Notes under the pieces: generated by a model
The model's input: only the letters and a program-made list of their open reading frames with translations
Databases searched by the model: none
What the model was told of the DNA's origin: nothing
Shown here: positions 3,631-62,488 of the stretch, in pieces
Numbering within the stretch: the stretch's first letter is position 1
How the letters are laid out: each line of letters starts with the position of its first letter
Translations under genes and position numbers: made by a program
Origin: Longimicrobiales bacterium
GTDB taxonomy: Bacteria > Gemmatimonadota > Gemmatimonadetes > Longimicrobiales > Gaopeijiaceae
NCBI GenBank assembly: GCA_965197725.1
Contig: CBDANQ010000060.1
Span: 111,270 to 175,269, forward strand
Length of the DNA: 64,000 nt
Reading direction: 5' to 3'

Positions 3631-3857
3631 CTTTGGATACGATCCTTTCTGCTTCATGATGTTGGATCAGCCGCCTTGAAGGGGGGGGGCGTCGGCCCAA
3701 TTGTACCAACTGCGGCTCCCCACACAAGGCGAAAGCCCCTACGGTCGCGATGATGCTCGCGCCCGTATCAGACCCATCCGAAGCGCCTCCGAGCCGGGCC
3801 CCACGACCGCGAGGCGGATACAGCCCTGAGCTCCCGTCTGCGGCCACCCGAGGGGTG

Positions 3858-5889: not shown

Positions 5890-6131
5890 GTTTCCTCCCT
5901 CGCTTTCGCGCGCGTGATGGTCAGGCGCCACTCGGAGGCGCCGGTTTCTTCGATATCGGTCTGGTATCCCAGTCGGGCCGCCTGGGTCGGAATCGTGTCC
6001 AGCGCCGGAGCATGATCCGTGACTACCTCGAGCGCGTCTTTGTGCTCGGAGAGCTTCTTCAGCGCGCTCACGGTCCGCATCATCGGGTACGGACAGATCT
6101 CCCCTCTCACATCCAGTTTCGTCGCTGGCAT
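5886..6131 (-). CDS. TusA/YedF/YeeD-family sulfur carrier
   Basis: LDVRGEICPYP motif, 81 aa, overlaps the next gene. Confidence 0.9.
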   Translation of the reverse strand: MPATKLDVRGEICPYPMMRTVSALKKLSEHKDALEVVTDHAPALDTIPTQAARLGYQTDIEETGASEWRLTITRAKAREET

Positions 6132-6152
6132 GGGTCTCCCGCTCCGTGTCGT

Positions 6153-7388: not shown

Positions 7389-8193
7389 CGTTTCCGCCCC
7401 GTGAGTTCCAGTCCTGCCACGATCCGTCGTAGAGCCGCACGCGGGGAAACCCAGCGTGGCGCAGCACCATGTACGTGTGCGCCGCGCGCATGCCCGACCG
7501 ACAGTAGGTGACGATCTCCCGGTCCGGCGTGACCCCTAGCTTCGCCCACTCCGAGCGGAGCTCGCCGCTGTCTCGAGAGCACTCCCATGACCCAACCGGG
7601 ACAGCGCGGAACCAGTCCCAACAAATCGCCCCCGGAAGGTGGCCCTGATCGAACTCCGTTTGAGCGCGCGTGTCGAGCAGGACGACGTCGTCGGGGATCC
7701 CGTGCTCATGGAGCCAGTCGTAGTCGGCGCTGACGTCCGCGGTCAAGCGCGATTCGAAAGCGGGCGCGCCTTCCGGTCGGGCACGCTCAGCGCGGCGGAC
7801 CGTGGGTAGTCGCTCCTCCTGCCATCGGTCCCACCCACCGTTCAACACCGCGACGGACCTGTGTCCGTAGCGGTGGAGGGCCCAAACCAGCCTCGCCGAG
7901 GCCAAGCCCCAGTGAGCGTCGTAGCAGACGACAGCGTCATTGTTGGAAAGCGTGACTCGGTCCATGAGTGCGTCGAATTCATGAGGAGGCAGCAACACGT
8001 TCTCACACCCCTCCCGCGTCCGTCCGAGCTCGGCCAGTTCCACATGGATCGCGCCGGGGATATGCTCGTCTTCGTAGGCCCGCGCGTCGCGGAGGTCGAC
8101 GATGCACACCTGAGGATCGTTCGCCTGCTTCTGTAGCCAGGCCGGATCGACGAGTAGACCTGGAAGTACCATTTCTCGGCGCAGTCCCGACAC
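7378..8193 (-). CDS. Cytoplasmic tandem-rhodanese sulfurtransferase
   Basis: HIPGAI, LNGGW, YCRSGMRA, YDGSWQDW. Confidence 0.9.
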   Translation of the reverse strand: MSGLRREMVLPGLLVDPAWLQKQANDPQVCIVDLRDARAYEDEHIPGAIHVELAELGRTREGCENVLLPPHEFDALMDRVTLSNNDAVVCYDAHWGLASARLVWALHRYGHRSVAVLNGGWDRWQEERLPTVRRAERARPEGAPAFESRLTADVSADYDWLHEHGIPDDVVLLDTRAQTEFDQGHLPGAICWDWFRAVPVGSWECSRDSGELRSEWAKLGVTPDREIVTYCRSGMRAAHTYMVLRHAGFPRVRLYDGSWQDWNSRGGNDGD

Positions 8194-23200: not shown

Positions 23201-24657
23201 GAAGCTGACCCAGCCGTAGTTGAAGGTCCCTGAAGAGGGAAAAGAAAAGTGGTGGCTCCGAGGGTGCCCGATCCGATAGGATCGGGTGCGCTAAAAACCC
23301 AAAAACGGAGCCACCACGATGAAGAGAACGTACGAAGTAGCGAGTGACACGGACAGGCGTGCGATGGCTGAGTTCGTGAAGCGAGAAGGCCAGTTCCTGC
23401 TGCCGATGGTCGAGCTCGTAGAGCACACGGAGCTCGCGATCGACGAAGTCGTCCAGGTGATGGGCCGAGCGACGATCGAGGCGGTACTCGAGATGAGCGC
23501 CGAAGGTGTGGCGGGCCCGAAGCAATCGGGCAAGGCACGCGAGGAGGGGGCGACGGTCTGGTACGGCCGCCAGGGCGGTCAGGTCTACCTGTCGGACCGA
23601 AAGGTCCGTATCCAGCGGCCTCGGCTGCGTGAGCGGACTGGCGGCCAGGGCGGCGAGGTCGAGGTGCCAGCGTACGAGGCGATGCGCAGGCCGGGCGCCA
23701 TGGCGGACCGAATGTTGGAGATCCTGATGGCAGGTGTGAGCACCCGGAAATACGGCCAGGTGATCGGCGAGATGGCCGACACGGTGGGGGTGAGCAAGTC
23801 GTCGGTGAGCCGCGAGACGATCGAAGCGTCGGAGCGCGTGCTGAAGGAGCTGATGGAGCGGCGGCTGGACGCATGGGATCTGTTGGTGATCTACCTGGAC
23901 GGTATCCAACTCGGTGCGCACCATGTACTTGCGGCTGTGGGCGTGGACACGGACGGCAAGAAGCACGTGCTGGGGATGCGGCAGGGAGCGAGTGAGAACA
24001 CCGAAGTGACGACGGCCCTGCTGCAGGATCTGGTCGAGCGGGGTCTGGACCCCGAGCGTCGACGCCTGTTCGTGATCGATGGCTCGAAGGCGTTACGGAA
24101 GGCGATTGTTCAGGTGTTCGGCGCGGGCCACTCGGTCCAGAGATGCCGAAATCACAAGCTCAGAAACGTGCTCGCTCACCTACCGAAGGATCAGCACCCG
24201 CAGGTGAAGGCCGCGATCCGCGCAGCATGGAAGCTCGATGCGAGGGACGGCGTGCAGAAACTCGAGCAGCTCGCGCGGTGGCTTGAACGAGATCAGCCGT
24301 CGGCCGCAGCGAGCCTGAGGGAGGGGCTGGGTGAGATGTTCACAATCAACCGGCTTGGGCTACCGCCTCGGCTGAGGAAGTGCCTCGGCACCACGAACCT
24401 GATCGACAGCACCCACGCAGGCGTGAGGCAGAAGACCTATAGGGTGACGAACTGGAAGAACAGAGCGATGGCACTGAGATGGGCCGCTGCCTCCTTCGTC
24501 GAGACCGAGAAGAACTACCGACGCATCGTCGGCTTCGACCAACTCTGGATGCTCAAAGCTCACCTCGATGACCGCGAGCCGGTTGCCGAAATGAAGATGG
24601 CAGGTTAATCACGAAAGCCTCGGAGTCACCACCTTCAACTGAGCCGGGGACACCTTC
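23201..24657 (+). mobile_element. IS256-family element type A, complete (1457 bp)
   Basis: Imperfect IRs GAAGCTGACCCAGCCGTAGTTGAAGGT / GAAGGTGTCCCCGGCTCAGTTGAAGGT; 8-bp duplication CCGCGTGC. Confidence 0.95.
23319..24608 (+). CDS. IS256-family transposase
   Basis: GVSTRK, IYLDG, VIDGSKAL, QRCRNHK, TTNLID. Confidence 0.95.
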   Translation: MKRTYEVASDTDRRAMAEFVKREGQFLLPMVELVEHTELAIDEVVQVMGRATIEAVLEMSAEGVAGPKQSGKAREEGATVWYGRQGGQVYLSDRKVRIQRPRLRERTGGQGGEVEVPAYEAMRRPGAMADRMLEILMAGVSTRKYGQVIGEMADTVGVSKSSVSRETIEASERVLKELMERRLDAWDLLVIYLDGIQLGAHHVLAAVGVDTDGKKHVLGMRQGASENTEVTTALLQDLVERGLDPERRRLFVIDGSKALRKAIVQVFGAGHSVQRCRNHKLRNVLAHLPKDQHPQVKAAIRAAWKLDARDGVQKLEQLARWLERDQPSAAASLREGLGEMFTINRLGLPPRLRKCLGTTNLIDSTHAGVRQKTYRVTNWKNRAMALRWAAASFVETEKNYRRIVGFDQLWMLKAHLDDREPVAEMKMAG

Positions 24658-37263: not shown

Positions 37264-37281
37264 TCCCTAGGCCGGAGGAGC

Positions 37282-37467
37282 GTCGAGGTCGTGCAGGCGT
37301 TTCGACGCTTGGCGCGGTCGGGCACGGTCTCGGACGCGAGGGCGACCGGGGCAGTCGAGCTACTCGACGCCCTGCCCGTCGAAAGACGCCCCGCTGGGAT
37401 TCTCGTGCCGCGCGTGTGGACGCTGCGCGACAACCTGAGCGCTTACGACGGACCCAGCTTGGAGTGA
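37282..37467 (+). pseudogene. Internal fragment of a second PIN/VapC toxin
   Basis: EVVQAFRRL...RVWTLRDNLSAYD; no start or end. Confidence 0.65.
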
Positions 37468-37550
37468 ATGTCTTATGGTACGCGAGGGGGTCGTGTACGT
37501 GACGGACAGCGAGAATCCTGGGGTTCGAGCTCTCGAAGGAGCCGTTTAGC

Positions 37551-38640
37551 ATGCGTATCGCTCGTCCCTGGACTGTCGGCGGTCTCATCGTCCTGGGGGC
37601 TGACGCGGGCCCAGACGTACACGCTCAGCATGCCGCCAGCGTGACCGTCGAGGAGACGGCTGGTATCCGGCGCACCCGGTTCCCGACCCGTGCACTGGCG
37701 AGCTCGTCTACGGTCCCGATACATCCGGACAGGCCCGACCTCGCCGGGGCCTGTCCGTCACCGAAGACGCGAAGGCCGTGCAAGTCGGCAGGCTACGATT
37801 CAGCAAGCGTGGCTCCCCGCTCCTTCTCTCGGCCGACTACCGAGGAGAGCTCATCGTAGTGGGTCGGGACGGCATCGTGGTCATCGACGGGGCAGGGGCC
37901 CGGCACGACGCGTCGGAGATCGAGTGGCAATCAGTGGAGCTCCTCAAGCGGGGTCCGCTGACGGTGCACCTGCGCTACGAAGGAACACTGGAGTTCAGCC
38001 GGGGAGGCCGTGCCGATGTAGTGATCGACGTGGAAATACCGAACAGCAAATCGTGGGTGAAGATCTCCACGGTCGTGCGCGATCTGGACCGGAGCGTGCG
38101 GGAAGTCGCCATCGAGACGCCGCTGAAGCTGGGCGAATATCCGTGGACGTGGGACTTCGGCACACCGAACGGTACGTGTGGCGCGTTCAGGGACTCGTCC
38201 GGCTCCGTCGTGCTGACACAGACGATCGCCCAAGACCGCGACGGGTCCTGGATGGTCCACGCCGGCCCGGCCGGGGCAGAGCAACCCTTCGAGAAGAGCG
38301 CGCCCAACCGGCCCGAGATCGTGCGCGGCTGGACCCACTTCCAGAACCAGTCGCAGGCTGTGGCGTTCGCGATCGAGGGGCTCGGCGACGTCCCCGGCAG
38401 GTTCACGGCAACCCTGAATGGCGAGGGCCAGACCTCGTTCGCCTTCGCGCCCGTGGAGTCAGTCGCCGAGCACTCACTCACCGTCTACGAGCACTTCGTC
38501 GTGACGCCGGTGCCTATCGGAGCCGCCACGAGTCCTGCTTCCATCTTGAGCCCGCTCCGCGCGCGGGTGGAGCTCCGTCCGAACCTACCTACCCGTGACC
38601 ACTCGGATGATACCGCCCGTGTAACCCGTACCGTATTGGA
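37551..38640 (+). CDS. Secreted hypothetical protein, frameshifted or deleted
   Basis: Signal-like N-terminus (VTVEETAGIRR) in one frame, beta-rich body in another; 3' end unclear. Confidence 0.45.
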
Positions 38641-38748
38641 TCGCGGCGTCTCTCAGGTCGAGGAACTCGATCCGTTCTCCCAGCGAGTCCTTTTCGTGTC
38701 GAGGGGCACGCCCGGGCGCTTCGGGGTGGGGCGGGAGCGTCCATGGGA

Positions 38749-41097
38749 TCACATCCGGAGGAGCCGGTTCACCTTGATCACGAACCCCCGGTTCTCCAGC
38801 TTGGAGAATCGGTCGAATACGTCCGTGTCACGCTCTTCCGTGTACACGATGAAGATCTCGCTTCCGGGGGCATACTCCCAACGCAGTCGAAAGTTGGCGC
38901 TGAAGGAATCGGTACCGGCACTGTACTGAACCAGTCCGCTCAGGAAGGTCCGGGGCGAGAAGCTGTAGCTGACGCGCGTCGAAGCCACGTGCTGGGTGAA
39001 GTCGCCCTGGGGCAGATCGACCCAGTTGAACGAGACATTGGGCTCGACGGAGAGTTGGGGCAGGACTTCGATTCTGGCCCTCTCAAACCCTACCGACGTG
39101 CGGTCGCCACCGAAGAAGCTGCCCCTTTGCAACGACAGATTTCCCGCAAATGGGCGCTGGAGACCGAAGCTGTAGCTGAACTGGACGTTTCGAAAGCTGT
39201 ATCGGCCCACCGGGATCGTCACGCCGGGTGCGATCGGAAACAGTTCGCTCAGGTTCTCGTAGCTGTCGGTGAAGTCCACGCTGAACTCATCGCTGGTCTC
39301 GAACTCGATCTGGAAATTGCCCTGTCGCTCCCGGGTCTCGACGAACCCCGCCTCGGCGTTCTCCAGGTAATTGATTCGCGCCTCGAGCGTCACCTGCCGG
39401 ATGGACTCGATGGACGCCGGTCGCGGGCTGTACCGCCCCGAGAGGAAGCTTTGTCGGATTCCTTTCCGCTGCACGAACCCGAGCTCCGGGTTGAAGTCTT
39501 CGCCAACCAGGAGGTGATCGATCTGGAGTCCCCACGCGTCCCCCGAGTAGCTGAATCGGCTACGGTAGCTCTCGTCTGTCCCGGTGAGCCCCTCGGTATC
39601 GGTCTTGGCGTAGTAGCCGAGGAGGTCGACGTTGTCCAAGACCGAGAATGTGGCGTCGATTCCATACGCCTGGTTGGATCCCGGCGCCAGGGTGGACTCC
39701 GACCGGCTCTCGAACAGCACCCCGATGCTGCTCCGCTGAAGGATGTCCCGGCGCAGCCGTAACACCGTGAAGTTGGTCGACTCGGCTCCTGCGCTCTGGA
39801 GGTCGTCCGTCCGGATGCTCAGGGCCCCGACATCGAAGGGACCCACCTTCCCGGTCACTCGACCACCGCCGAGGATGGGCACCGGCTCACCGCTCTGGAG
39901 ACCGATTCTGCGGCTGAAGAACAGCGTGGGCGCGCTCACGCCGCCGCGGCCGAAGCCCGCGCCTACACCGGCCGTCGCGAAACCGAAGATGCCCCGTCCC
40001 TCGAGAAAGAACTCCCTCCTTTCGGGAAAGAAGAGACTGAACCGCGTGAGGTTCACCTGCTGTTCGTCAGCCTCGACCTGGGCGAAGTCGGTGTTGTAGG
40101 TGAAGTCGGCTGTCAGGTTGTCGGTGATCCCGATCTTGAGGTCCAATCCCGCGTCGGCGCTCAGGTCGTTCCGGGATTCGGGATCGGTGGTCAGGTCGGT
40201 CGCGAGCCCCGAAATGCCATACGGCTTGAGCTCGATCACCCTGCTCGACGGTGGTGCCTCGAGCCCGACCAGCGTAGCGTACCTCGAGACGCGCATCGAG
40301 AGTGCCGGCCCCACTGGAGCTGCCGACCTGGGAATCAGCGTGAGATGGCTCCATTCGTTCCTCCGACGGATGGCGCGCCTCATCTGGACGCCCCAGACCT
40401 GCTCGGAGCCCCCTCGGTACCGGAGCGACTTGAAGGGGATCTGCATCTCGACTGTCCAACCGCCGTCGAAGCGACCCGTTCTTACGTCCCAGACCGGGTT
40501 CCAGTCGCTGTTCGCGTTACCCTCGTTCGTGATCGCGAAGTCGGAGAGGGCGCCGAGCGGGTTCGTGTAGAACATCACCCCGTTTCGGCGATCGTAGAAC
40601 GTGTCGAACATGACCCCGAACGTGTCGTTCTGCCGGAGCTGACCGTTGTCTCGCCGCAGCTCGTTTGCCATCCATTCGCTCTCCGGCGCGGAGTCCCACA
40701 TGCGCGCGGACACATAGATGTCCGTGTTGTCGAAGGTGAGCCAAACCTCCGTCCGCTCGGTAGCGGCTGCACCCTCATCGGGTACGCTCTGTATGAAGCC
40801 CGAGAAAGAGCGGGTCACCTCGTAGAAGGTCTCGTCCAGTCTGCCGTCGAGCTGGATCGGTCGCCTCAACCGGACCGCCCGGACGGTGGCGTCGCCGCGG
40901 TCGTCGCGGGTGATGACTTCGGGCGGCGTGGGCGGAAGGGGACCTTCGGCCCGGACCCGGTCGCTCCCCTTGGCACCTCCTGCCTGGGCAGCGAGCCCTT
41001 GGGGGCGCTCGAGCATTGCGGACACAGTGACCAGCGCCACGACGGTAATCCAGACCTTCGAGGGTCCAAGGCGAGCCATCATAGCCATTCTCTGCAT
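38749..41097 (-). CDS. DUF5916-type protein, paralogue of 1391-3630
   Basis: LDGRLDE, NTDFAQVEAD, FPERREFFLE, FFSRRIG. Confidence 0.88.
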   Translation of the reverse strand: MQRMAMMARLGPSKVWITVVALVTVSAMLERPQGLAAQAGGAKGSDRVRAEGPLPPTPPEVITRDDRGDATVRAVRLRRPIQLDGRLDETFYEVTRSFSGFIQSVPDEGAAATERTEVWLTFDNTDIYVSARMWDSAPESEWMANELRRDNGQLRQNDTFGVMFDTFYDRRNGVMFYTNPLGALSDFAITNEGNANSDWNPVWDVRTGRFDGGWTVEMQIPFKSLRYRGGSEQVWGVQMRRAIRRRNEWSHLTLIPRSAAPVGPALSMRVSRYATLVGLEAPPSSRVIELKPYGISGLATDLTTDPESRNDLSADAGLDLKIGITDNLTADFTYNTDFAQVEADEQQVNLTRFSLFFPERREFFLEGRGIFGFATAGVGAGFGRGGVSAPTLFFSRRIGLQSGEPVPILGGGRVTGKVGPFDVGALSIRTDDLQSAGAESTNFTVLRLRRDILQRSSIGVLFESRSESTLAPGSNQAYGIDATFSVLDNVDLLGYYAKTDTEGLTGTDESYRSRFSYSGDAWGLQIDHLLVGEDFNPELGFVQRKGIRQSFLSGRYSPRPASIESIRQVTLEARINYLENAEAGFVETRERQGNFQIEFETSDEFSVDFTDSYENLSELFPIAPGVTIPVGRYSFRNVQFSYSFGLQRPFAGNLSLQRGSFFGGDRTSVGFERARIEVLPQLSVEPNVSFNWVDLPQGDFTQHVASTRVSYSFSPRTFLSGLVQYSAGTDSFSANFRLRWEYAPGSEIFIVYTEERDTDVFDRFSKLENRGFVIKVNRLLRM

Positions 41098-41490
41098 CCT
41101 GATCGGCCCCCAGGTGTGCAGAAGAGTCAGAGGGTGCTACGTGAACTCGACACTGTTCAGAACGGTTTCGTTGTGGATCCCCAGCGCTTGACCGTCACCC
41201 GCTCGGCCTCACATGCGGAATAGTAGCTGATCGTCACGAAAAGGCCGTCCGCTCGAGGTCGCACATCTGGAAGTCGAATGCACCCGAGTCGTTGAACTCG
41301 CGGGTGAATTGATCCCGTTCGGCCACTGTGGCGCGAATCTCTTCCGGGAATCCCTCGTGGGCCCGGATCCCGAACTAAATGGCGTTTCCTTTGACGACGG
41401 ACTACCACGCACAGCTTGGTGGGAGAGCCGAGCGGCCTCGGAAAGGCGCCGCGCCCTCCGGAGGACCTCGATCCTTGAGCCGAAACGCCT

Positions 41491-41595
41491 GTCCTGATGC
41501 GGGAGCATGATGTCCGCCGCATCTGCACGCGCGACACGGATTTCCATCGCTTCCCGTTTGTGGAGCCCATCGACGCGTTCGTCTCAGACCGGTAG
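41491..41595 (+). pseudogene. C-terminal fragment of a third PIN/VapC toxin
   Basis: VLMREHDVRRICTRDTDFHRFPFVEPID. Confidence 0.6.
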
Positions 41596-41748
41596 GCCTC
41601 CGCCCGACATCTGATCGAGCCGTCCCATCCAGCCATCCCCTCATGGAGTGGCCGGCCGCATCGTTGGTTCAGCCGTATCTCGCTCGAGCAGGATGTGATA
41701 TGGGCTTGGCGATTCGCGATGCGGGGCTTTATCCAAAGGAGGTAAGAA

Positions 41749-41946
41749 ATGCGCAAATTGACGGGGCAAGAGTTGTCGGCGGTTCGCGGTGGTAGGCCCG
41801 GCCTGGGCACGGCTTGCGGATCCGCTGCTGGCGCGGCGTGGTCGGCGTGGCGTTGGTTTGGGAAGGTGCCGATGTGGGGCTCCTCCATCGTCGCCTATTC
41901 GGTCCTGATCGCGGGGACGACGTGCCTACTCGACGCGTTCTTCTAG
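41749..41946 (+). CDS. Double-glycine-leader peptide precursor 1 (bacteriocin-like), 65 aa
   Basis: AAGGAGGT RBS; leader MRKLTGQELSAVRGG; hydrophobic Gly/Ala-rich core with 2 Cys. Confidence 0.8.
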   Translation: MRKLTGQELSAVRGGRPGLGTACGSAAGAAWSAWRWFGKVPMWGSSIVAYSVLIAGTTCLLDAFF

Positions 41947-41981
41947 GCCTTTCTGACACTCTTCGATACAAGGAGTTGGTT

Positions 41982-42173
41982 ATGACGCGTATGACAACAG
42001 AGCAGCTGGTATCGGTGCAAGGCGGCGGCTTCTTCGATGGCTTCCTCTGCGGTGCGGGCATCGTCGCGTTGATCGCCGTCGCGACGGGCTCGGGTGGAGC
42101 GGCGCTTGGCCCCGCTTCACTCTTCTTCGCCCAGGCTGGCGTGCTAGGAGCCTGCCTAAGCGCTTTTAGGTAG
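41982..42173 (+). CDS. Double-glycine-leader peptide precursor 2 (bacteriocin-like), 63 aa
   Basis: AAGGAG RBS; leader MTRMTTEQLVSVQGG; hydrophobic core with 2 Cys. Confidence 0.8.
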   Translation: MTRMTTEQLVSVQGGGFFDGFLCGAGIVALIAVATGSGGAALGPASLFFAQAGVLGACLSAFR

Positions 42174-42234
42174 GGCACGCGTAGTCCAAGACCGGAGGAG
42201 CCATGGTCCTGAGAGCGTTCGGACCGACCAGCCA

Positions 42235-42260
42235 CCACGGCGGGGCATGCCCCGCCGTGG
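42235..42260. repeat. Perfect 26-bp palindrome
   Basis: CCACGGCGGGGCATGCCCCGCCGTGG. Confidence 0.85.
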
Positions 42261-43022
42261 CATCCTCCGCTGTGGTGATCTTCCGCGCCAAATGGACCAT
42301 GGAGGCTCGGAGATGAAGGTGTCCCCGGCTCAGTTGAAGGTGGTGACTCCGAGGCTTTCGTGATTAACCTGCCATCTTCATTTCGGCAACCGGCTCGCGG
42401 TCATCGAGGTGAGCTTTGAGCATCCAGAGTTGGTCGAAGCCGACGATGCGTCGGTAGTTCTTCTCGGTCTCGACGAAGGAGGCAGCGGCCCATCTCAGTG
42501 CCATCGCTCCGTTCTTCCAGTTCGTCACCCTATAGGTCTTCTGCCTCACGCCTGCGTGGGTGCTGTCGATCAGGTTCGTGGTGCCGAGGCACTTCCTCAG
42601 CCGAGGCGGTAGCCCAAGCCGGTTGATTGTGAACATCTCACCCAGCCCCTCCCTCAGGCTCGCTGCGGCCGACGGCTGATCTCGTTCAAGCCACCGCGCG
42701 AGCTGCTCGAGTTTCTGCACGCCGTCCCTCGCATCGAGCTTCCATGCTGCGAGGATCGCGGCCTTCACCTGCGGGTGCTGATCCTTCGGTAGGTGAGCGA
42801 GCACGTTTCTGAGCTTGTGATTTCGGCATCTCTGGACCGAGTGGCCCGCGCCGAACACCTGAACAATCGCCTTCCGTAACGCCTTCGAGCCATCGATCAC
42901 GAACAGGCGTCGACGCTCGGGGTCCAGACCCCGCTCGACCAGATCCTGCAGCAGGGCCGTCGTCACTTCGGTGTTCTCACTCGCTCCCTGCCGCATCCCC
43001 AGCACGTGCTTCTTGCCGTCCG

Positions 43023-44479
43023 GATGGTGTCCCGCTGACAGTTGAAGGTGGTGGCGCCGGAGAGTCTCTTGGTTAGCCTGTCTTTCTCATTTCGGCAACC
43101 GGTTCATGGTCGTCGAGGTGGGCCCTGAGCATCCAGAGCTGGTCGTAGCCGATGATCCTCCGGTAGCTCTTCTCGGTTTCCACGAACGAGGCCGCAGCCC
43201 AGCGCAAGGCCATCGCTCCGTTCTTCCAGTTAGTCACCCTGCGGGTCTTCCGTCTTACGCCCGAGTGGGTGCTGTCGATCAGGTTGGTCGAGCCCAGGCA
43301 CTTCCTCAGCCGCGGTGGGAGGCCGAGCCGGTTTATGGTGAACATCTCGCTGAGGCCTTCGCGCAGGCTGGCTGCGGCCGAGGGGTGGTCGCGCTCGAGC
43401 CATCGGGCGAGCTGCTCGAGCTTCTGCTCGCCCTGCTTCGCGTCCAGCTTCATCGCCGCCCGGAACGCCGCCTTCACCTGAGGATGCTGATCCTTCGGCA
43501 GATGACCCAGCACGTTGCGGAGCTTGTGGTTGCGGCAGCGCTGGATGGGGTGACGTTGGCCGAACACCTTCTCGATCGCCTTCCTGAGCGCTTTCGAGCC
43601 ATCGATCACGAACAGCCGCCGCCTGCCCGGGTCCAGGCCGCGCTCGACCAGATCCTCTAGGAGCGCGCTGGTCACCTCGGCGTTCTCACTCGCTCCTTCC
43701 CTCACGCCCAGCACGTGCTTCTTTCCGTCTGAGTCCACGCCTACCGCAGCAAGCACGTGGTGCGAGCCCATCTGGATCCCGTCCAGGTAGATCACCAGGA
43801 GGTCCCACGCATCCAGCCGGCGCTCCATCAGCTCCTTCAGCACGCGCTCCGAGGCCTCGACCGTCTCACGGCTCACCGCCGACTTGCTCACCCCGACCGT
43901 GTCGGCCATCTCACCGATCACACGGCCGTACTTTCGCGTGCTCACCCCCGCCATCAGGACCTCGAGCATCCGATCCGCCACGGCGCCCGGTCTCCGCATC
44001 GCTGCGTACGCCGGCACCTCGACCTCGCCACCCTCCCCGGCGCCCCGGCGCCTGAGCCGTGGCCGCTCCACACGCACCTTCCGGTCCGACAGGTAAACCA
44101 CACCACCCTGCCGGCCATACCACACCGTGTCGTCTTCCGCTCGTGACCGACCTGCCTGCTTCACGCCTGCCACACCCTCTGCGCTCATCTCCAGCACCGC
44201 TTCGATCGTCGCTTGTCCCATCACCTGGATGACTTCGTCGATCGCGACCTCCGTCTGCTCCACGAGCTCAAGCATCGGAAGCAGAAACTGCCCCTCCCGC
44301 TTCAGGAACTCCCTGATCGCGCGCTTGTCCGCCCGATCCCTTACCTCGTACGTTCTCTTCATCGTGGTGGCTCCGTGTTGGGGTTTTTGCCTACCCGAGC
44401 CTATCGGCCCGGGACCCCCGGAGCCACCACTTTTCTTTCTCCCCTATCAGGGACCTTCAACTACGGTTGGGACAGCTTC
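43023..44479 (-). mobile_element. IS256 type B, complete (1457 bp), nested in type A
   Basis: Terminal IRs; 8-bp duplication GCCGTCCG at 43015-43022 and 44480-44487. Confidence 0.93.
43073..44362 (-). CDS. IS256-family transposase (type B)
   Basis: 429 aa, same motifs as type A with many substitutions. Confidence 0.95.
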   Translation of the reverse strand: MKRTYEVRDRADKRAIREFLKREGQFLLPMLELVEQTEVAIDEVIQVMGQATIEAVLEMSAEGVAGVKQAGRSRAEDDTVWYGRQGGVVYLSDRKVRVERPRLRRRGAGEGGEVEVPAYAAMRRPGAVADRMLEVLMAGVSTRKYGRVIGEMADTVGVSKSAVSRETVEASERVLKELMERRLDAWDLLVIYLDGIQMGSHHVLAAVGVDSDGKKHVLGVREGASENAEVTSALLEDLVERGLDPGRRRLFVIDGSKALRKAIEKVFGQRHPIQRCRNHKLRNVLGHLPKDQHPQVKAAFRAAMKLDAKQGEQKLEQLARWLERDHPSAAASLREGLSEMFTINRLGLPPRLRKCLGSTNLIDSTHSGVRRKTRRVTNWKNGAMALRWAAASFVETEKSYRRIIGYDQLWMLRAHLDDHEPVAEMRKTG

Positions 44480-45105
44480 GCCGTCCGTGTCCACGCCCAC
44501 AGCCGCAAGTACGTGGTGCGCACTGAGTTGGATACCGTCCAGGTAGATCACCAACAGATCCCATGCGTCCAGCCGCCGCTCCATCAGCTCCTTCAGCACG
44601 CGCTCCGACGCTTCGATCGTCTCGCGGCTCACCGACGACTTGCTCACCCCCACCGTGTCGGCCATCTCGCCGATCACCTGGCCGTATTTCCGGGTGCTCA
44701 CACCTGCCATCAGGATCTCCAACATTCGGTCCGCCATGGCGCCCGGCCTGCGCATCGCCTCGTACGCTGGCACCTCGACCTCGCCGCCCTGGCCGCCAGT
44801 CCGCTCACGCAGCCGAGGCCGCTGGATACGGACCTTTCGGTCCGACAGGTAGACCTGACCGCCCTGGCGGCCGTACCAGACCGTCGCCCCCTCCTCGCGT
44901 GCCTTGCCCGATTGCTTCGGGCCCGCCACACCTTCGGCGCTCATCTCGAGTACCGCCTCGATCGTCGCTCGGCCCATCACCTGGACGACTTCGTCGATCG
45001 CGAGCTCCGTGTGCTCTACGAGCTCGACCATCGGCAGCAGGAACTGGCCTTCTCGCTTCACGAACTCAGCCATCGCACGCCTGTCCGTGTCACTCGCTAC
45101 TTCGT

Positions 45106-45854
45106 ATGGGCTCGCACCACGTGCTTGCTGCGGTAGGCGTGGACTCAGACGGAAAGAAGCACGTGCTGGGCGTGAGGGAAGGAGCGAGTGAGAACGCCGA
45201 GGTGACCAGCGCGCTCCTAGAGGATCTGGTCGAGCGCGGCCTGGACCCGGGCAGGCGGCGGCTGTTCGTGATCGATGGCTCGAAAGCGCTCAGGAAGGCG
45301 ATCGAGAAGGTGTTCGGCCAACGTCACCCCATCCAGCGCTGCCGCAACCACAAGCTCCGCAACGTGCTGGGTCATCTGCCGAAGGATCAGCATCCTCAGG
45401 TGAAGGCGGCGTTCCGGGCGGCGATGAAGCTGGACGCGAAGCAGGGCGAGCAGAAGCTCGAGCAGCTCGCCCGATGGCTCGAGCGCGACCACCCCTCGGC
45501 CGCAGCCAGCCTGCGCGAAGGCCTCAGCGAGATGTTCACCATAAACCGGCTCGGCCTCCCACCGCGGCTGAGGAAGTGCCTGGGCTCGACCAACCTGATC
45601 GACAGCACCCACTCGGGCGTAAGACGGAAGACCCGCAGGGTGACTAACTGGAAGAACGGAGCGATGGCCTTGCGCTGGGCTGCGGCCTCGTTCGTGGAAA
45701 CCGAGAAGAGCTACCGGAGGATCATCGGCTACGACCAGCTCTGGATGCTCAGGGCCCACCTCGACGACCATGAACCGGTTGCCGAAATGAGAAAGACAGG
45801 CTAACCAAGAGACTCTCCGGCGCCACCACCTTCAACTGTCAGCGGGACACCATC
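45106..45854 (+). mobile_element. IS256 type B, 3' half, inverted
   Basis: 749-bp inverted copy of 43023-43771, ending in the IR ...GGGACACCATC. Confidence 0.88.
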
Positions 45855-47846: not shown

Positions 47847-48689
47847 CTAGTTCGTCGTTTTCTCCTTTGCTCTTGCTCTCTTTCTCTTCGGGGGTGAAGG
47901 GCTCGACTCCGCAGGAGGCGAGTGGAGGATCTTGGAGAGGTCGGTGTGCTTGCGCATCCGGTAGCTGCTGCCGCGGATGTTGACGATGTGGCAGTGATGC
48001 AGCAGGCGATCGATGAGCGCAGCGGCCATGACCTCGTCGCCCAAGATCTGGCCCCACTCCTCGAAGCCTTTATTGGAGGTCAGCACAGTGGATGCGCGCT
48101 CATAGCGCCGGTTGATGAGTTGGAAGAAGAGCATTGCGCCGGTCTGGCTGACCGGCAGGTAGCCGATCTCGTCGATGACCAGGAGCGAAGGATAGGTGAG
48201 GATCTTGAGGCGGCGTCCCAGCTGGCCGGTGGTCTTGGCTTCTTCGAGCGAGGTGATGAGGTCGGCCAGAGCGCCGTAGTAGACTCTGCGCCCGCTCTGA
48301 GCCGCGGCAATGGCGAGGCTGATCGCGAGATGCGTCTTGCCGACGCCCGGAGGGCCGAGGAAGATCACGTTCTCCTTACGCTCCAAGAAGCCGAGCTCGT
48401 GGAGCGAGTCGATCTGCTCGCGCTTGATCGAGGGCTGGAAGCTGAAGTCGAAGTCGTCGAGGGTCTTGATGCCCGGTAGCCGGCTCGAGCGCATCGCAGC
48501 CTGAAGGCGGCGGTTGTTGCGCAGCGTGATCTGGGCACCGAGGAGTTGCTCGATGGCCTCCGAGGCCGTCACGCCTCCGCCATCGACCCCGGTGAGGACG
48601 TCGTCGATGGCCTCCAGCGCACCGGGCATCTTGAGATCGGCGAGCTGGGCTCGGATCCGGTCACGGCGAGAGCGAGCGGCAGCCTTCAT
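47847..48689 (-). CDS. istB: IS21 helper ATPase IstB
   Basis: GPPGVGKTHLA, IDEIGY, TSNK, DRLLHH. Confidence 0.95.
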   Translation of the reverse strand: MKAAARSRRDRIRAQLADLKMPGALEAIDDVLTGVDGGGVTASEAIEQLLGAQITLRNNRRLQAAMRSSRLPGIKTLDDFDFSFQPSIKREQIDSLHELGFLERKENVIFLGPPGVGKTHLAISLAIAAAQSGRRVYYGALADLITSLEEAKTTGQLGRRLKILTYPSLLVIDEIGYLPVSQTGAMLFFQLINRRYERASTVLTSNKGFEEWGQILGDEVMAAALIDRLLHHCHIVNIRGSSYRMRKHTDLSKILHSPPAESSPSPPKRKRARAKEKTTN

Positions 48690-49714
48690 CGGTCCCCTCC
48701 CGCGATCTGGGCATAGGCCGTGAGGGGACGTCGCTCGACGTGGATGGCCGGCAAGGACGTCGTGCCGGGTGAGGAGCGATCCGGAGGCAGGACGAGGGGG
48801 TGATACGGGCGAGTCGCCAAGGGCTCGAGGAGCAGTCGTTCACGCTCGAAGCGATCGAGGGGCCGCTCCTTCAGCGTTCCGTGGCTGCGCACCTTGGCTT
48901 CCGTCTCAAGCCAATGAAGGGCCTGCGCGTTGAGATCGTCGTCCGACGTGAAGGTGCGCCCGTAGAAGAAGCTCTCCCTGAGGTAGCGGATCGGCCGCTC
49001 CACCTTGCCCTTGGTCTGAGCCCGATAGGGTCGGCACGCGCGGATCCTGAAGTTCCAGTGGTAGGCGTAGCGCATGAACTCCGGGTTCTCGACGAGGGCA
49101 CCATCGTCGTATCGACCGTCCTCGATGACGACCGCCTTCATTTGGTCGAACAGAAGCTCTGAGGGCACGCCGCCGAAGTAGGAAAACGAAGACTCCAGGC
49201 CATGCATCAGGGCCTTCATGGTCTGCCGGGTGTAGAACTGAACCCACAGCAGCCTCGAGTAGCCCAGCACGACGATTAGTGCGTAACGCTTGCCCCACGG
49301 TAGCCGGAAGTGGGCGAAGTCCACCTGGCCCTGACGCCCAGGCGCCGTCTCGAAGCGCACGACCGGCTCCTCTGGGGGTCGAGGCCGGACCTTGCGTACA
49401 TAGCGCTTCACTTGGTTGTAACTGCCCGGGTAGCCAGCGGCCCGGACCTCCTTGAAGAGCCGTACAGCCGTGAGCTTCGGGTACTCCTTGAGACGCGTGT
49501 CGATCAACGGCTTGTACGGATCCAGCTTCGACGGCATCAGACATCTCGGACCGTACCCGACACGCTCTTCGTCCAACTCCCGGTCCAGTTGACCGGTCTC
49601 TATCCAGTGGTACACGGTACGGCGACTGACCCCCAGATCCCGGGCGATCACCGCCTTGTTCATCCCCTGCTCGAGGTAATGACGGAGCAGCACGCGCTTC
49701 TCCCTTCCGATCAT
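48686..49714 (-). CDS. istA: IS21 transposase IstA
   Basis: N-terminal HTH, RFETAPG.QGQVDF, DQMK, KGKVER. Confidence 0.95.
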   Translation of the reverse strand: MIGREKRVLLRHYLEQGMNKAVIARDLGVSRRTVYHWIETGQLDRELDEERVGYGPRCLMPSKLDPYKPLIDTRLKEYPKLTAVRLFKEVRAAGYPGSYNQVKRYVRKVRPRPPEEPVVRFETAPGRQGQVDFAHFRLPWGKRYALIVVLGYSRLLWVQFYTRQTMKALMHGLESSFSYFGGVPSELLFDQMKAVVIEDGRYDDGALVENPEFMRYAYHWNFRIRACRPYRAQTKGKVERPIRYLRESFFYGRTFTSDDDLNAQALHWLETEAKVRSHGTLKERPLDRFERERLLLEPLATRPYHPLVLPPDRSSPGTTSLPAIHVERRPLTAYAQIAGGDR

Positions 49715-58312: not shown

Positions 58313-59341
58313 ATGATCGGAAGGGAGAAGCGCGTGCTGCTCCGTCATTACCTCGAGCAGGGGATGAACAAGGCGGTGATCGCCCGGGATCTGGGGGTCA
58401 GTCGCCGTACCGTGTACCACTGGATAGAGACCGGTCAACTGGACCGGGAGTTGGACGAAGAGCGTGTCGGGTACGGTCCGAGATGTCTGATGCCGTCGAA
58501 GCTGGATCCGTACAAGCCGTTGATCGACACGCGTCTCAAGGAGTACCCGAAGCTCACGGCTGTACGGCTCTTCAAGGAGGTCCGGGCCGCTGGCTACCCG
58601 GGCAGTTACAACCAAGTGAAGCGCTATGTACGCAAGGTCCGGCCTCGACCCCCAGAGGAGCCGGTCGTGCGCTTCGAGACGGCGCCTGGGCGTCAGGGCC
58701 AGGTGGACTTCGCCCACTTCCGGCTACCGTGGGGCAAGCGTTACGCACTAATCGTCGTGCTGGGCTACTCGAGGCTGCTGTGGGTTCAGTTCTACACCCG
58801 GCAGACCATGAAGGCCCTGATGCATGGCCTGGAGTCTTCGTTTTCCTACTTCGGCGGCGTGCCCTCAGAGCTTCTGTTCGACCAAATGAAGGCGGTCGTC
58901 ATCGAGGACGGTCGATACGACGATGGTGCCCTCGTCGAGAACCCGGAGTTCATGCGCTACGCCTACCACTGGAACTTCAGGATCCGAGCGTGCCGACCCT
59001 ATCGGGCTCAGACCAAGGGCAAGGTGGAGCGGCCGATCCGCTACCTCAGGGAGAGCTTCTTCTACGGGCGCACCTTCACGTCGGACGACGATCTCAACGC
59101 GCAGGCCCTTCATTGGCTTGAGACGGAAGCCAATGTGCGCAGCCACGGAACGCTGAAGGAGCGGCCCCTCGATCGCTTCGAGCGTGAACGACTGCTCCTC
59201 GAGCCCTTGGCGACTCGCCCGTATCACCCCCTCGTCCTGCCTCCGGATCGCTCCTCACCCGGCACGACGTCCTTGCCGGCCATCCACGTCGAGCGACGTC
59301 CCCTCACGGCCTATGCCCAGATCGCGGGAGGGGACCGATGA
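58313..59341 (+). CDS. istA: IS21 transposase IstA
   Basis: Differs from copy 1 by one visible residue (K/N). Confidence 0.95.
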   Translation: MIGREKRVLLRHYLEQGMNKAVIARDLGVSRRTVYHWIETGQLDRELDEERVGYGPRCLMPSKLDPYKPLIDTRLKEYPKLTAVRLFKEVRAAGYPGSYNQVKRYVRKVRPRPPEEPVVRFETAPGRQGQVDFAHFRLPWGKRYALIVVLGYSRLLWVQFYTRQTMKALMHGLESSFSYFGGVPSELLFDQMKAVVIEDGRYDDGALVENPEFMRYAYHWNFRIRACRPYRAQTKGKVERPIRYLRESFFYGRTFTSDDDLNAQALHWLETEANVRSHGTLKERPLDRFERERLLLEPLATRPYHPLVLPPDRSSPGTTSLPAIHVERRPLTAYAQIAGGDR

Positions 59342-59976
59342 AGGCTGCCGCTCGCTCTCGCCGTGACCGGATCCGAGCCCAGCTCGCCGATCTCAAGATG
59401 CCCGGTGCGCTGGAGGCCATCGACGACGTCCTCACCGGGGTCGATGGCGGAGGCGTGACGGCCTCGGAGGCCATCGAGCAACTCCTCGGTGCCCAGATCA
59501 CGCTGCGCAACAACCGCCGCCTTCAGGCTGCGATGCGCTCGAGCCGGCTACCGGGCATCAAGACCCTCGACGACTTCGACTTCAGCTTCCAGCCCTCGAT
59601 CAAGCGCGAGCAGATCGACTCGCTCCACGAGCTCGGCTTCTTGGAGCGTAAGGAGAACGTGATCTTCCTCGGCCCTCCGGGCGTCGGCAAGACGCATCTC
59701 GCGATCAGCCTCGCCATTGCCGCGGCTCAGAGCGGGCGCAGAGTCTACTACGGCGCTCTGGCCGACCTCATCACCTCGCTCGAAGAAGCCAAGACCACCG
59801 GCCAGCTGGGACGCCGCCTCAAGATCCTCACCTATCCTTCGCTCCTGGTCATCGACGAGATCGGCTACCTGCCGGTCAGCCAGACCGGCGCCATGCTCTT
59901 CTTCCAACTCATCAACCGGCGCTGGAGTTAGCCCCTGACGGTGGACACCTATTCTCTTTAGAGAGAGGAGTCCACG

Positions 59977-60291
59977 ATGCCAAGAACGAGACCGCCGTAT
60001 TCGTTGGAGTTCCGCCAGCAGATGGTGGAGCTGGTCAAAGCAGGTCGCACGCCTGAGGAGCTGAGTCGGGAGTTTGAGCCCACAGCGCAGACGATCCACA
60101 ATTGGGTGAAGCAGACGGACCTCGACACGGGAGTCAGAAGCGACGGCCTGACGTCGTCAGAGCGCGAGGAGCTCCGCGAGCTTCGGCGTGAGAACAAGCG
60201 GCTTCGTGTCGAGCGGGAGATCCTAAAAAAAGCCGCGGCCTGGTTCCCTCAGGAGTCCGACTCGGTGCCCCCGAAGCGTTCGAGTTCGTGA
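59977..60291 (+). CDS. IS3 OrfA
   Basis: YSLEFRQQMV HTH, ELRRENKRLRVEREILKKA; A7G slippery site at 60225-60232. Confidence 0.9.
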   Translation: MPRTRPPYSLEFRQQMVELVKAGRTPEELSREFEPTAQTIHNWVKQTDLDTGVRSDGLTSSEREELRELRRENKRLRVEREILKKAAAWFPQESDSVPPKRSSS

Positions 60292-60861
60292 GGGCCAACC
60301 AGGCCGAGTTCAGCGTGCAGATGATGTGCGAAGTCCTGAGCGTCTCGCCCAGCGGGTACTACGCATGGAGAAAGCGTCCTCCATCGCATCGCGCGGTCGA
60401 GAACGAGCGACTGCTAGGTCGGATGCGTGAGATCCACACGTTCAGCCGTGAGACGTATGGCCAGCCACGGATGTACGCCGAGCTCAGGGACGACGGCTGG
60501 CAGGTCAACCACAAGCGGGTGCGTCGTCTGATGAGGCTGGCAGGACTACAAGGCGCTACGCGGCGAAGGAAGTGGCGCACGACGAAGCGAAACAGAGATG
60601 CTCGACCTGCCCCCGATCTCGTCGCGCGCGACTTCAGTGTGCACGGCCCGGACCAGCTCTGGGTTGCCGACATCACCTACGTGCCGACCCGGGAGCGGCT
60701 TCTTGTACCTGTCAGTCGTCGTCGATGCGTGGAGCCGCCATGTGGTCGGATGGTCGATGAAGACGCATCTCAAGACCGATCTCGTGCTCGACGCGCTGAA
60801 CATGGCGCTGCAGCAACGACGACCGAACGGTGTCATCCATCATAGCGATCAGGGTACCCAG

Positions 60862-62488
60862 CCTAGGTTCAAGCGGTCGTCGCAACAGTACCGTGTTGAA
60901 GGGTTTTCATGCGCCCCGATGTTGCTGGACACTAGGCTGGCGAGGGCGATGGGGTCCAGACAGAAAGAAGTCAGTTCTTGATGTCTCCCAACCCGAGGGA
61001 GTCAGAAGCGACCGAAGGTCGTTGAAGGCTGGAGATACGGGAGCGGTAGAGCATTTCAACGCAAGGTTGAGGTCTGGTCCTTTGATGACAACAGATTTTC
61101 CAAGGTTTCCGCCGGAGTTCTCCAACCGAGGGTCTTGCGGGGGCGGCTGTTGAGAGCGGCTGCGACGGCGGCGAGATCGTCAGCGGTATGTCTGCTGAGG
61201 TCGGTGCCCTTCGGGAAGTACTGTCTCAACAGGCCGTTCGTGTTTTCGTTCGTGCCGCGCTGCCACGGGCTCTGCGGGTCGCAGAAGTAGACGGCCAGGC
61301 CAGTATCGATGCGAAGCCGTTCGTGCTGAGCCATCTCTGTTCCCTGGTCCCATGTCAGAGACCGGCGGAGTTGCTCGGGCAGGGTCGTGATCGACGAAGC
61401 AATCGCGTCCCGGACGGCTTCGGCACCGTGTCCAGCCAACGCTGGACCGTTCTTGGTCCTGGGCTCGCCGTGTTTGTCAAGGCGGGGGAGGTGGAGCAGC
61501 ATCGTAAACCGGGAGGCCCGCTCGACCAGCGTTCCGATCGCCGAACTGCCCAGTCCCAGGATCAGGTCGCCTTCCCAGTGCCCGGGAACGGCGCGGTCGT
61601 CTGCCTCGGCCGGTCGCTCACTGAGCATGATCTCGGGGTGAACGAACGTCTTGCCCCGTCCGCGGGTGCGAGCTCGAGGCACCCGTAGCGCGCGTCCCGT
61701 CCGAAGGCACGCTGTCAGCTCCCGTCGCAGCGCACCACGGCCCTGAACGTAGAGCGCCTGGTAGATGGCTTCGTGCGATATACGCATGGACTCATCGTCG
61801 GGGAAGTCGACCCGTAGCCTGTTGGCGATCTGCTCGGGACTCCACGAGACCGCCCACCGCCGGTCTTGTCGGCGACCGCGACGCCGTCCGATCCAGCGCA
61901 CATCGGGGCCCGCCACGGCCGTACCATCTGAAGCCGCGATCAGGCCTCCGAGGCGATCCTGTACATACTGCCTCAGTTCACCGTTCGTAGCGAGCTTCGC
62001 AAGCTTGGGACGTTTCGCTCGCCGATCGGCGTGCCATTGAGCGGTCGTGGCCCGATACTCGAGATTGCCTCCCCGTGTAGCTGCGTTTCGCCCCAGTTCT
62101 CGCGAGATCGTCGAGGGTGAGCGGCCCAACTGCCGGGCGATCTCGCGCACGCCACGACCACGGGCTCGAAGAACGGCGATCTCTTCTCGCTCAACGAACG
62201 AAAGATAGCGCCGTGACTGGGGACGAAGATTGAGGGGTGCCATGCCACCACATTCGCGAAACCAGCGCACCCCGACAGCGGGGGACACACCCGCTGCCAC
62301 GGCGGCCTCCTCGCTCGACAGACCTCGAGCGACCTCTTCCCAGAACCTCTGCCGATGCTCGCGGCGTCCCACCGGCGGACGGCCTGGTGAACGCATCTGT
62401 GGACGTAGAGCTCGATCCGCTCGTCGGCGCTTGCTTGCCTCCATCGCAACTCCTCCTCGAGGTGTTGCGACGACCGCTTGAATTCACC
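60862..62488 (-). mobile_element. IS30-family element
   Basis: IR core TTCAAGCGGTCGTCGCAACA at both ends; CAG (or ACCCAG) duplicated. Confidence 0.88.
61056..62444 (-). CDS. IS30-family transposase
   Basis: WSPEQIA, GHWEGDL, TWDQGTE, PWQRGTNENTNGLLRQYFPKG. Confidence 0.95.
   Translation of the reverse strand: MEASKRRRADRALRPQMRSPGRPPVGRREHRQRFWEEVARGLSSEEAAVAAGVSPAVGVRWFRECGGMAPLNLRPQSRRYLSFVEREEIAVLRARGRGVREIARQLGRSPSTISRELGRNAATRGGNLEYRATTAQWHADRRAKRPKLAKLATNGELRQYVQDRLGGLIAASDGTAVAGPDVRWIGRRRGRRQDRRWAVSWSPEQIANRLRVDFPDDESMRISHEAIYQALYVQGRGALRRELTACLRTGRALRVPRARTRGRGKTFVHPEIMLSERPAEADDRAVPGHWEGDLILGLGSSAIGTLVERASRFTMLLHLPRLDKHGEPRTKNGPALAGHGAEAVRDAIASSITTLPEQLRRSLTWDQGTEMAQHERLRIDTGLAVYFCDPQSPWQRGTNENTNGLLRQYFPKGTDLSRHTADDLAAVAAALNSRPRKTLGWRTPAETLENLLSSKDQTSTLR

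Follow-up and report, generated by a model that had tools for sequence, protein, structure and literature searches.

Two described kinds of secreted peptide come closest to the locus that we report here. Class IIb bacteriocins of Gram-positive bacteria, such as lactococcin G and plantaricins EF and JK, are made of two different, helical and membrane-seeking peptides whose genes adjoin in a single operon, with a small immunity protein in the same locus; their GxxxG motifs, a hallmark of the class, are thought to mediate helix–helix packing (PMC2850506). Class II microcins of the Gram-negative Enterobacterales, such as MccV (leader MRTLTLNELDSVSGG), are single, mostly soluble, unmodified small peptides with a disulfide, processed and exported by an ABC transporter with a peptidase domain (PCAT) that a membrane fusion protein links to TolC (PMC12219008). 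Double-glycine leaders are N-terminal, ∼15–30 residues long and end in Gly-Gly, Gly-Ala or Gly-Ser (PMC6363468, PMC2850506), and PCAT/AMS transporters recognize in their substrates Leu-12, Glu-8, Leu-7 and Val-4 followed by Gly-Gly/Ala/Ser (PMC6363468); all of these sources are drawn on here in excerpt. We describe two adjacent small genes, pepA and pepB, in a 64,000-nucleotide stretch (the window) of the genome of a Longimicrobiales bacterium (GenBank assembly GCA_965197725.1, contig CBDANQ010000060.1, positions 111,270–175,269 of the forward strand). The original prediction, made from the sequence alone, took the host to be probably a member of Gemmatimonadota, which its lineage confirms (phylum Gemmatimonadota, order Longimicrobiales), and proposed a two-peptide bacteriocin or a peptide that is made on the ribosome and modified after translation (RiPP). 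Our analysis supports the bacteriocin half of that proposal, through the leaders and the synteny with a PCAT, and leaves the RiPP half unsupported because no modification enzyme is present. We put at roughly two in three (0.65) the probability that pepA and pepB are the structural genes of a putative unmodified, PCAT-exported, class II-type two-peptide bacteriocin, microcin-like and specific to Gemmatimonadota.

The system resembles both a class IIb bacteriocin and a class II microcin, by sequence belongs to neither, and its gene cassette is without the microcin adaptor gene. With class IIb systems it shares two different peptides side by side in one operon, GxxxG motifs, predicted helical, membrane-seeking peptides and protective genes in the same locus, which here are candidates. 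It differs from them in showing no sequence relationship (TIGR03949, E 0.97), in cores that are longer, nearly uncharged and predicted to form two-helix hairpins with a conserved Cys pair, in having a diderm rather than a Gram-positive producer, and in offering an ABC-2 exporter and a Yip1-like protein as candidates where those systems have a small immunity protein. With class II microcins it shares a Gram-negative producer, a 15-aa GG signal with the same hydrophobic spacing, small, probably unmodified peptides, a probable disulfide, and probable processing and export by a PCAT. Unlike microcins, it has two very hydrophobic peptides and no membrane fusion protein in the cassette.

Our literature search found no characterized double-glycine or two-peptide bacteriocin from Gemmatimonadota. 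The excerpted part of a study of marine Gemmatimonadota metagenome-assembled genomes (MAGs) has only annotated Nif11-type "bacteriocin" and "microcin" genes, genome mining in the phylum having gone no further than a tally of generic "bacteriocin" clusters of this type (PMC11316326), and the main text of PMC12219008, as far as excerpted, does not mention the phylum; its supplements may list more taxa.

Two double-glycine peptide genes under purifying selection

pepA and pepB lie on the same strand, 35 nt apart, each with a Shine–Dalgarno site 6 nt before its ATG (Table 1), which agrees with the strong ribosome-binding sites originally read there. The mechanical list of open reading frames (ORFs) opens the pepB frame at a TTG (41814), giving 119 aa; the suspicion that this was a mis-start proved correct, and homologues begin at the internal ATG. 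Each precursor starts with a 15-aa leader ending in GG (pepA, MRKLTGQELSAVRGG; pepB, MTRMTTEQLVSVQGG). The pepA leader has L-12, E-8, L-7 and V-4 before its GG, and the pepB leader has M-12, L-7 and V-4, with Glu at -9 instead of -8, so that both fall within the double-glycine definition and keep the hydrophobic docking positions -4, -7 and -12.

Core analysis agreed with the predicted 50- and 48-aa hydrophobic, Gly/Ala-rich cores: the grand average of hydropathy is 0.70 for pepA and 1.37 for pepB, with seven and 10 Gly and nine and 11 Ala, respectively, and a net charge of about +2 and 0. In both, the first core Cys is at position 8 and is followed by Gly, and the second (position 44 in pepA, 43 in pepB) opens a C-terminal tail, C-L-L-D-A-F-F in pepA and C-L-S-A-F-R in pepB. 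At 22% identity the two peptides are as divergent as first described, apart from the common leader, GxxCG motif and C-terminal Cys. GxxxG motifs occur in the pepA core (G5xxxG9 and G9xxxG13) and in the pepB core (G1xxxG5, G5xxxG9 and G24xxxG28). An AlphaFold2 (AF2) model of pepB has helices at residues 16–34 and 44–62 with a loop between them, at low confidence (pLDDT 61). A complex prediction for the two cores, each with its own subtype alignment, scored 0.02 against a mark of 0.32, a "no answer" that is evidence neither way.

Table 1. Features of the pepA/pepB locus, in window coordinates
Feature	Position	Strand	Description
Conserved upstream region, probable promoter and 5′ untranslated region	41511–41748	+	92% identity to G123 from 41511
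pepA Shine–Dalgarno site AAAGGAGG	41735–41742	+	Read from the sequence; GGAGG at 41738–41742, ATG 6 nt on
pepA	41749–41946	+	Z type; 65-aa precursor, ATG start; leader 41749–41793; 50-aa core with Cys8 and Cys44
pepB Shine–Dalgarno site AAGGAG	41970–41975	+	Read from the sequence; ATG 6 nt on
pepB	41982–42173	+	X type; 63-aa precursor, ATG start; leader 41982–42026; 48-aa core with Cys8 and Cys43
Permease 5′ stump, cut by IS256	42203–42316	+	37 codons; translates to MVLRAFGPTSHHGG..., which matches the N-terminus of the 554-aa G123 protein
Target-site duplication TCGGAGAT	42307–42314		8 bp; second copy at G000:C57, L002 6886–6893; blastn overlap L031 10549–10557
Nest of IS256-family (Transposase_mut) copies	42315–45804		PF00872 in 42364–43005 (−), 43073–44362 (−), 44447–45073 (−) and 44563–45804 (+)

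pepA and pepB are genuine genes under purifying selection. Among orthologue pairs from three genomes (this one; G123, of the same genus; and G140, assigned to another genus), the ratio of nonsynonymous to synonymous substitution rates (dN/dS) was 0.20–0.33 for pepA and 0.12–0.24 for pepB, and the differences from the G123 and G140 orthologues are mostly synonymous. pepA is 89% identical to its orthologue in G123 and 83% in G140; pepB is 89% identical in G123 and 94% in G140, which has an extra copy at 68%. A hidden Markov model (HMM) of the family, run against the 53,795 stop-to-stop frames of the genome (a 3.0-Mb MAG in 61 contigs, 89% complete), matched exactly two of them, pepA (E 8.8e-25) and pepB (E 9.4e-21), and the next frame came at E 0.45. 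Two opposite-strand ORFs (41157–41888 and 41729–42238) were dismissed as products of high GC content because, by dN/dS, conservation follows the plus-strand frames.

Conservation extends upstream of pepA (Table 1). A consensus scan of the upstream region returned no sigma-70-like promoter and no intrinsic terminator (0 sites), and an Rfam scan of the window returned 0 matches. Two RNA libraries from two marine-sediment studies yielded contigs of 779 and 710 nt that start at 41614 and 41650, follow the locus to 42155 at ∼89% identity and then continue into a third peptide gene at the 319-nt spacing seen in G140. They span nothing but the peptide genes, those of a relative with three peptides and ∼89% identity, and fit a short abundant transcript in that relative; this is a weak hint, as the contigs settle neither strand nor DNA carry-over, and the parts of the window that they leave uncovered carry no information.

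A paired peptide family in Gemmatimonadota

Pfam and NCBIfam scans of the two peptides gave nothing significant, and profile searches of PDB sequences with the X-type (pepB-like) and Z-type (pepA-like) alignments returned non-significant rows only. Searching a collection of 5.8 billion proteins with a profile of 17 pepB-like sequences, we recovered 124 protein clusters (E ≤ 0.001), none with a Pfam domain; the organism names attached to them are solely Gemmatimonadota/Gemmatimonadetes MAGs. The distribution of the family is patchy. Of 200 other genomes sampled from the same taxonomic family, the pepB query picked out 13 carriers, confirmed by HMM, to which a profile scan added G069, and in a phylum-wide sample three of 400 other genomes had matches. 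Weak pepA matches in nine genomes and a pepB match in G116 were judged not to be family members (best E 0.0022, L008).

Three subtypes can be told apart: Z (...EGxxCGxMVGAL...FTPxxCxLDYG), X (GFWxGFLCGAG...PDP...ACxxAF) and Y (...WCG...LTVNKAxxAC). The original prediction expected homologues to keep the GG site and the Cys positions, and they largely do. Among 76 X-type sequences (alignment A7), G20 and G24, which make GxxCG a GxxxG motif, are invariant; C23, C58 and G14 (the -2 Gly) are each present in 75, and 73 have exactly two Cys after G14. In the leader, 73 of the 76 have L or M at position 4, and 62 have L, V, I or M at position 12. The 11 Z-type sequences (alignment A4) are invariant at M1, L4, G14, G20, C23, G24, G28, V40, A49, C59 and D62; across alignments A1, A4, A5 and A7, precursor positions G20 and G24 never vary. 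The -1 residue is freer: G (42), S (two), A (one), R (11), E (seven), M (five), T (five), V (one) or L (one) across the 75 X-type sequences in which the -2 Gly is kept. This variation suggests either a PCAT clade tolerant at -1, with a relaxed S1 pocket, or altered processing in such members.

The proposed two-component pairing found support in the genomic arrangement. All 17 genomes examined carry a tandem of at least two family genes, with Z next to X in 11 and X next to Y in five (G265 is untypable). An X type thus stands next to a different type in 16 of the 17 and two X types never occur alone, with X divergence reaching down to ∼30% identity. The pattern is suggestive and comes with no statistic; the count overstates its support because the kin are not independent. 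Tandem paralogues could also be PCAT-exported bacteriocins that are each active singly, as in multi-bacteriocin loci, with no obligate two-peptide unit, in keeping with the homology of pepA and pepB and with a copy number that varies (three family genes in both G140 and G327). The recurrent joining of X to a Z or Y partner speaks against independent action, even discounted for kinship, and hints at an X peptide that acts together with a partner; we consider singly active peptides unlikely.

A PCAT cassette follows the peptide genes in relatives

No PCAT is encoded within the window. The search of the genome called for by the original prediction found one: the genome's single Peptidase_C39 match (PF03412, E 7.8e-31) lies on another contig, C57, in a full-length open frame of 705 aa with C39, ABC_membrane and ABC_tran domains. 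This protein aligns to PCAT1 of Clostridium thermocellum (4RY2; E 1.5e-79, residues 3–683), with the Q...DCG, HF, DP and Walker motifs in register. The aligned Gln, Cys (of DCG), His and Asp are presumably the catalytic residues of the peptidase. Its likeness to PCAT1/ComA thus covers the peptidase Cys, His and Asp and the Walker motifs, whereas the substrates are unrelated and family relatives here often have a non-canonical -1 residue (30 of 75).

The neighborhoods of relatives tie the exporter to the peptides. In each of the six loci that offer 8 kb or more of context (G123, G140, G103, G058, G035 and G109), the peptide genes lie directly upstream of a cassette that runs, after the peptides, through a ∼420–550-aa membrane protein, an ABC ATPase, the PCAT and a ∼226-aa membrane protein. 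G123 and G140 have in this order a ∼550-aa protein without a Pfam match, the ATPase, a PCAT of 710–729 aa and a ∼226-aa protein without a Pfam match. The PCAT is a single full-length frame in three of the six relatives. That of G123, at L031 12876–15065, is 729 rather than 705 aa long owing to a 24-aa duplication inside the ATPase domain; with this duplication and Arg at the second conserved Cys of its pepB, at L031 10225–10416, the G123 cassette may also be decaying.

The genes that flank the cassette differ between lineages, and therefore only the five-gene cassette is conserved. In G140, the cassette sits on an 8.7-kb contig (L032) in a different neighborhood, with an OmpA-family gene adjoining, and is 92% identical in DNA to the C57 cassette, compared with 93% for the same-genus G123. 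From the changing flanks and this likeness across genera, the cassette looks mobile; the G140 likeness itself points to recent horizontal transfer or to a misbinned contig.

Neither modification enzymes nor sensor kinases and response regulators turned up among the ORFs scanned in the six loci. This bears on the thought that the precursors are RiPPs whose cores are enzymatically modified before export. GG leaders do also serve lanthipeptide and Nif11/NHLP precursors, according to the excerpted source (PMC6363468), and the Cys residues could be modification sites. Set against that are the missing enzyme families, the failure of the peptides to match Nif11/NHLP or any other precursor family, and the variation of everything around the five-gene cassette, which together make RiPP precursors very improbable.

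The suggested search for a PCAT plus HlyD met with half success. Scans of the cassette ORFs in the six loci gave no HlyD-family Pfam match, though HlyD_3 matches occur at five other places in the genome (the nearest 59 kb from the peptides, on C60) and TolC-like/OEP genes are present.

Candidate protective and oxidation genes

The ∼550-aa protein is one of a family with 71 representatives (E ≤ 0.001) among 1.84 billion proteins. None of its 39 aligned homologues (alignment A6, with the G123 gene at L031 10431–12095) has a Pfam match at E ≤ 0.01, and even at E ≤ 1 nothing matched either this permease or the Yip1-like protein. With the permease alignment as query, the contig profile scan brought up two loci only and a word-indexed search three proteins only. 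The AF2 model of the ∼550-aa protein (pLDDT 81.4, pTM 0.77) is all-helical and polytopic. Foldseek returned no match to it at E ≤ 0.001. With VIA-align, residues 320–549 aligned to ABC-2 transmembrane domains (NosY, Z 17.0; CcmB, 16.4; ABCG2, 16.1; PmtCD, 14.9), and the whole chain aligned over 418 residues (Z 13.6) to a mycobacterial efflux pump with 12 transmembrane (TM) segments, 8K1N, which from the title of one paper only (PMC11406275) we take to be Rv1217c-1218c. A language-model search placed the protein with clusters named "putative ABC transporter membrane protein" (score 0.97). By its model, the ∼550-aa protein together with the ATPase gene after it is a predicted fused 12-TM ABC-2-type exporter. 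It resembles the type V 12-TM exporters (8K1M/8K1N) and PmtCD in fold and in the separate ATPase gene that follows, and differs from them in having no Pfam match in any family member aligned.

For the ∼226-aa protein, a likeness to Yip1-domain membrane proteins comes from the language-model search alone (score 0.93). Candidates for immunity are the Yip1-like protein and the permease–ATPase pair, and none belongs to a family with known immunity function; the protective role of the exporter is putative, suggested by its position only. A divergent fusion of ABC-2 and CPBP (Rce1-like) domains, with its own ATPase, adjoins the cassette solely in the lineage of this genome (G000) and G123. For oxidation, a VKOR gene adjoins a DsbA-like Thioredoxin_4 gene on C51 (G000:C51:49802–50807) and no DsbB was found in the 89%-complete genome. 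Apparently the organism forms disulfides through a VKOR-type system.

These neighbors help to weigh a non-antibiotic function, in which the exported peptides would serve as a signal or act on the producer's own envelope (periplasm or inner membrane). Such a function would sit easily with a cassette that has no HlyD-type adaptor in any of the six loci, in a genome that has HlyD_3 genes elsewhere, and with peptides that show no likeness to known bacteriocins. A pheromone was rejected because no kinase or regulator stands beside the cassette, and hydrophobic two-helix cores of 48–50 aa are unlike short pheromones. A dedicated ABC-2 exporter beside the peptides has the look of self-protection, and PmtCD, an exporter of phenol-soluble modulins, is one of its fold matches. 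A patchy distribution (three of 400 phylum genomes) and frequent decay fit an accessory competition locus, and overall we find a non-antibiotic role distinctly unlikely.

Insertion sequences and the state of the local copy

In this genome, the cassette is in two parts. By blastn, the G123 cluster corresponds to window positions 41511–42314 and then to C57 (L002 6886 onward), and homology in the window stops at 42314. Because the break carries an 8-bp duplication, imperfect inverted ends and Transposase_mut genes in consistent orientation, we conclude that an IS256-family element inserted after permease codon 37, 142 bp past pepB, separating the peptides from the rest of the cassette. On C57, the remainder of the permease is a pseudogene with a +1 frameshift and a ∼0.73 kb deletion; the final ∼13 codons of the ATPase gene contain an IS5-like element (DDE_Tnp_1) with a CTAG duplication; and 30 aa are deleted in frame from the ∼226-aa Yip1-like protein. 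The PCAT is intact, as are pepA and pepB. In an independent DNA run (X2), a 100%-identical contig stops at 42309 without bridging the insertion sequence (IS) junction, as expected at a repeat boundary. The separation of C60 and C57 may be a true rearrangement or an assembly break with rejoining at IS copies.

As the cassette is split, its permease a pseudogene and its ATPase gene invaded at the 3′ end, the local copy may be decaying. At the extreme, the pair in this genome would be a non-functional relic, cut off from its exporter and protective genes, as the IS256 insertion, the permease lesions, the IS5-like element and the Yip1-like deletion would all lead one to expect. Against this, the ORFs of pepA and pepB are intact together with their ribosome sites and the 238-bp region upstream, the PCAT is full-length with its catalytic motifs, and in a MAG of 61 contigs the split is possibly in part an assembly effect at repeats. 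A relic in this genome is a serious possibility to which we give somewhat less than even odds, and it concerns the local copy.

The window as a whole is crowded with insertion sequences. Other mobile DNA lies at 23319–24608, 47847–49714, 58313–59931 and 60288–62444. The IS256-type set comprises the four Transposase_mut ORFs of the nest, including an inverted pair, and one further copy at 23319; there are also two IS21 copies (rve and IstB) in opposite orientation and more HTH/rve transposase genes. Upstream, the distance from an alpha/beta hydrolase gene to pepA is 4.2 kb (37280–41510), compared with 139 bp in G123. The extra DNA holds a 782-aa DUF5916 gene (38749–41097, minus strand), which resembles a 901-aa DUF5916/CBM9 gene at 1391–4096, and a 383-aa ORF without a family. 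Further away, a sulfur-handling group at 4975–8193 on the minus strand consists of a Sulf_transp membrane protein like YeeE/YedE and two proteins with rhodanese domains.

Discussion

We favor the reading that pepA and pepB encode a PCAT-exported, unmodified two-peptide bacteriocin, and it suggests the following mechanism. One short operon would yield both precursors, whose 15-residue leaders would bind in helical form within the dedicated PCAT's C39 peptidase domain. The PCAT would cleave after the Gly-Gly (G15) and, driven by ATP, move the cores out of the cytoplasm. Each core would form a hydrophobic helix–loop–helix hairpin, with GxxCG opening helix 1 and the conserved second Cys near the end of helix 2, so that Cys8 and Cys43/44 would meet at the open end of the hairpin; oxidation outside the cytoplasm, by the VKOR/DsbA-like pair, would then staple it. 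In target membranes, the X-type peptide (pepB) would act jointly with a different second peptide, here of Z type. The fused 12-TM ABC-2 exporter would rid the producer's membrane of peptide, and the Yip1-like protein possibly protects it too.

Several observations weigh against this reading. The cores, at 48–50 aa, are longer and far less cationic than those of the class IIb peptides characterized in the excerpted source (PMC2850506). No significant likeness to known bacteriocins was found: the class IIb model TIGR03949 (lactobin A/cerein 7B) gives pepB 9.3 bits against a cut-off of 21.5 and does not match pepA, and the match to the carnobacteriocin B2 precursor is at E 0.37. Cleavage at a canonical site is not assured across the family because the -1 residue is G, A or S in 45 of 75 X-type relatives and non-canonical in 30, and the pepB of G123 has Arg at the second conserved Cys. 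Two relatives, G058 and G109, have a frameshifted or split PCAT and a third, G035, has one without the C-terminal half, although the frameshifts could be assembly errors. The TolC-like and HlyD-type genes, lying outside the cassette, leave release beyond the outer membrane without an explanation. In this genome the cassette itself is broken, by the IS256 split, the permease pseudogene and the clipped ATPase, and the RNA-library contigs are no proof of transcription.

A bolder version of the proposal would have these be obligate heterotypic two-peptide bacteriocins restricted to Gemmatimonadota, acting as disulfide-stapled TM hairpins, exported by a PCAT that has no dedicated outer-membrane conduit and tolerates R, E, M or T at -1, and countered by a fused 12-TM ABC-2 family without a Pfam model together with a Yip1-like protein. 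We hold this full combination only tentatively and, as a whole, think it rather unlikely. To our knowledge, such a system would have no class IIb-type, two-peptide precedent outside Gram-positives and would be the first characterized bacteriocin of its phylum.

The pepA/pepB system is real and previously unannotated, and in principle it is no surprise. Gemmatimonadota are abundant in soils and marine sediments, and we know of nothing established experimentally about competition among them. Along with a defined exporter and candidate protective genes, the family gives an easily synthesized and probably unmodified peptide pair. It raises the questions of how a diderm releases a very hydrophobic PCAT cargo with no dedicated adaptor, whether a C39 peptidase accepts R, E, M or T at -1, and whether a conserved Cys pair staples a two-helix membrane hairpin. 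The locus also illustrates how insertion sequences dismantle competition cassettes.

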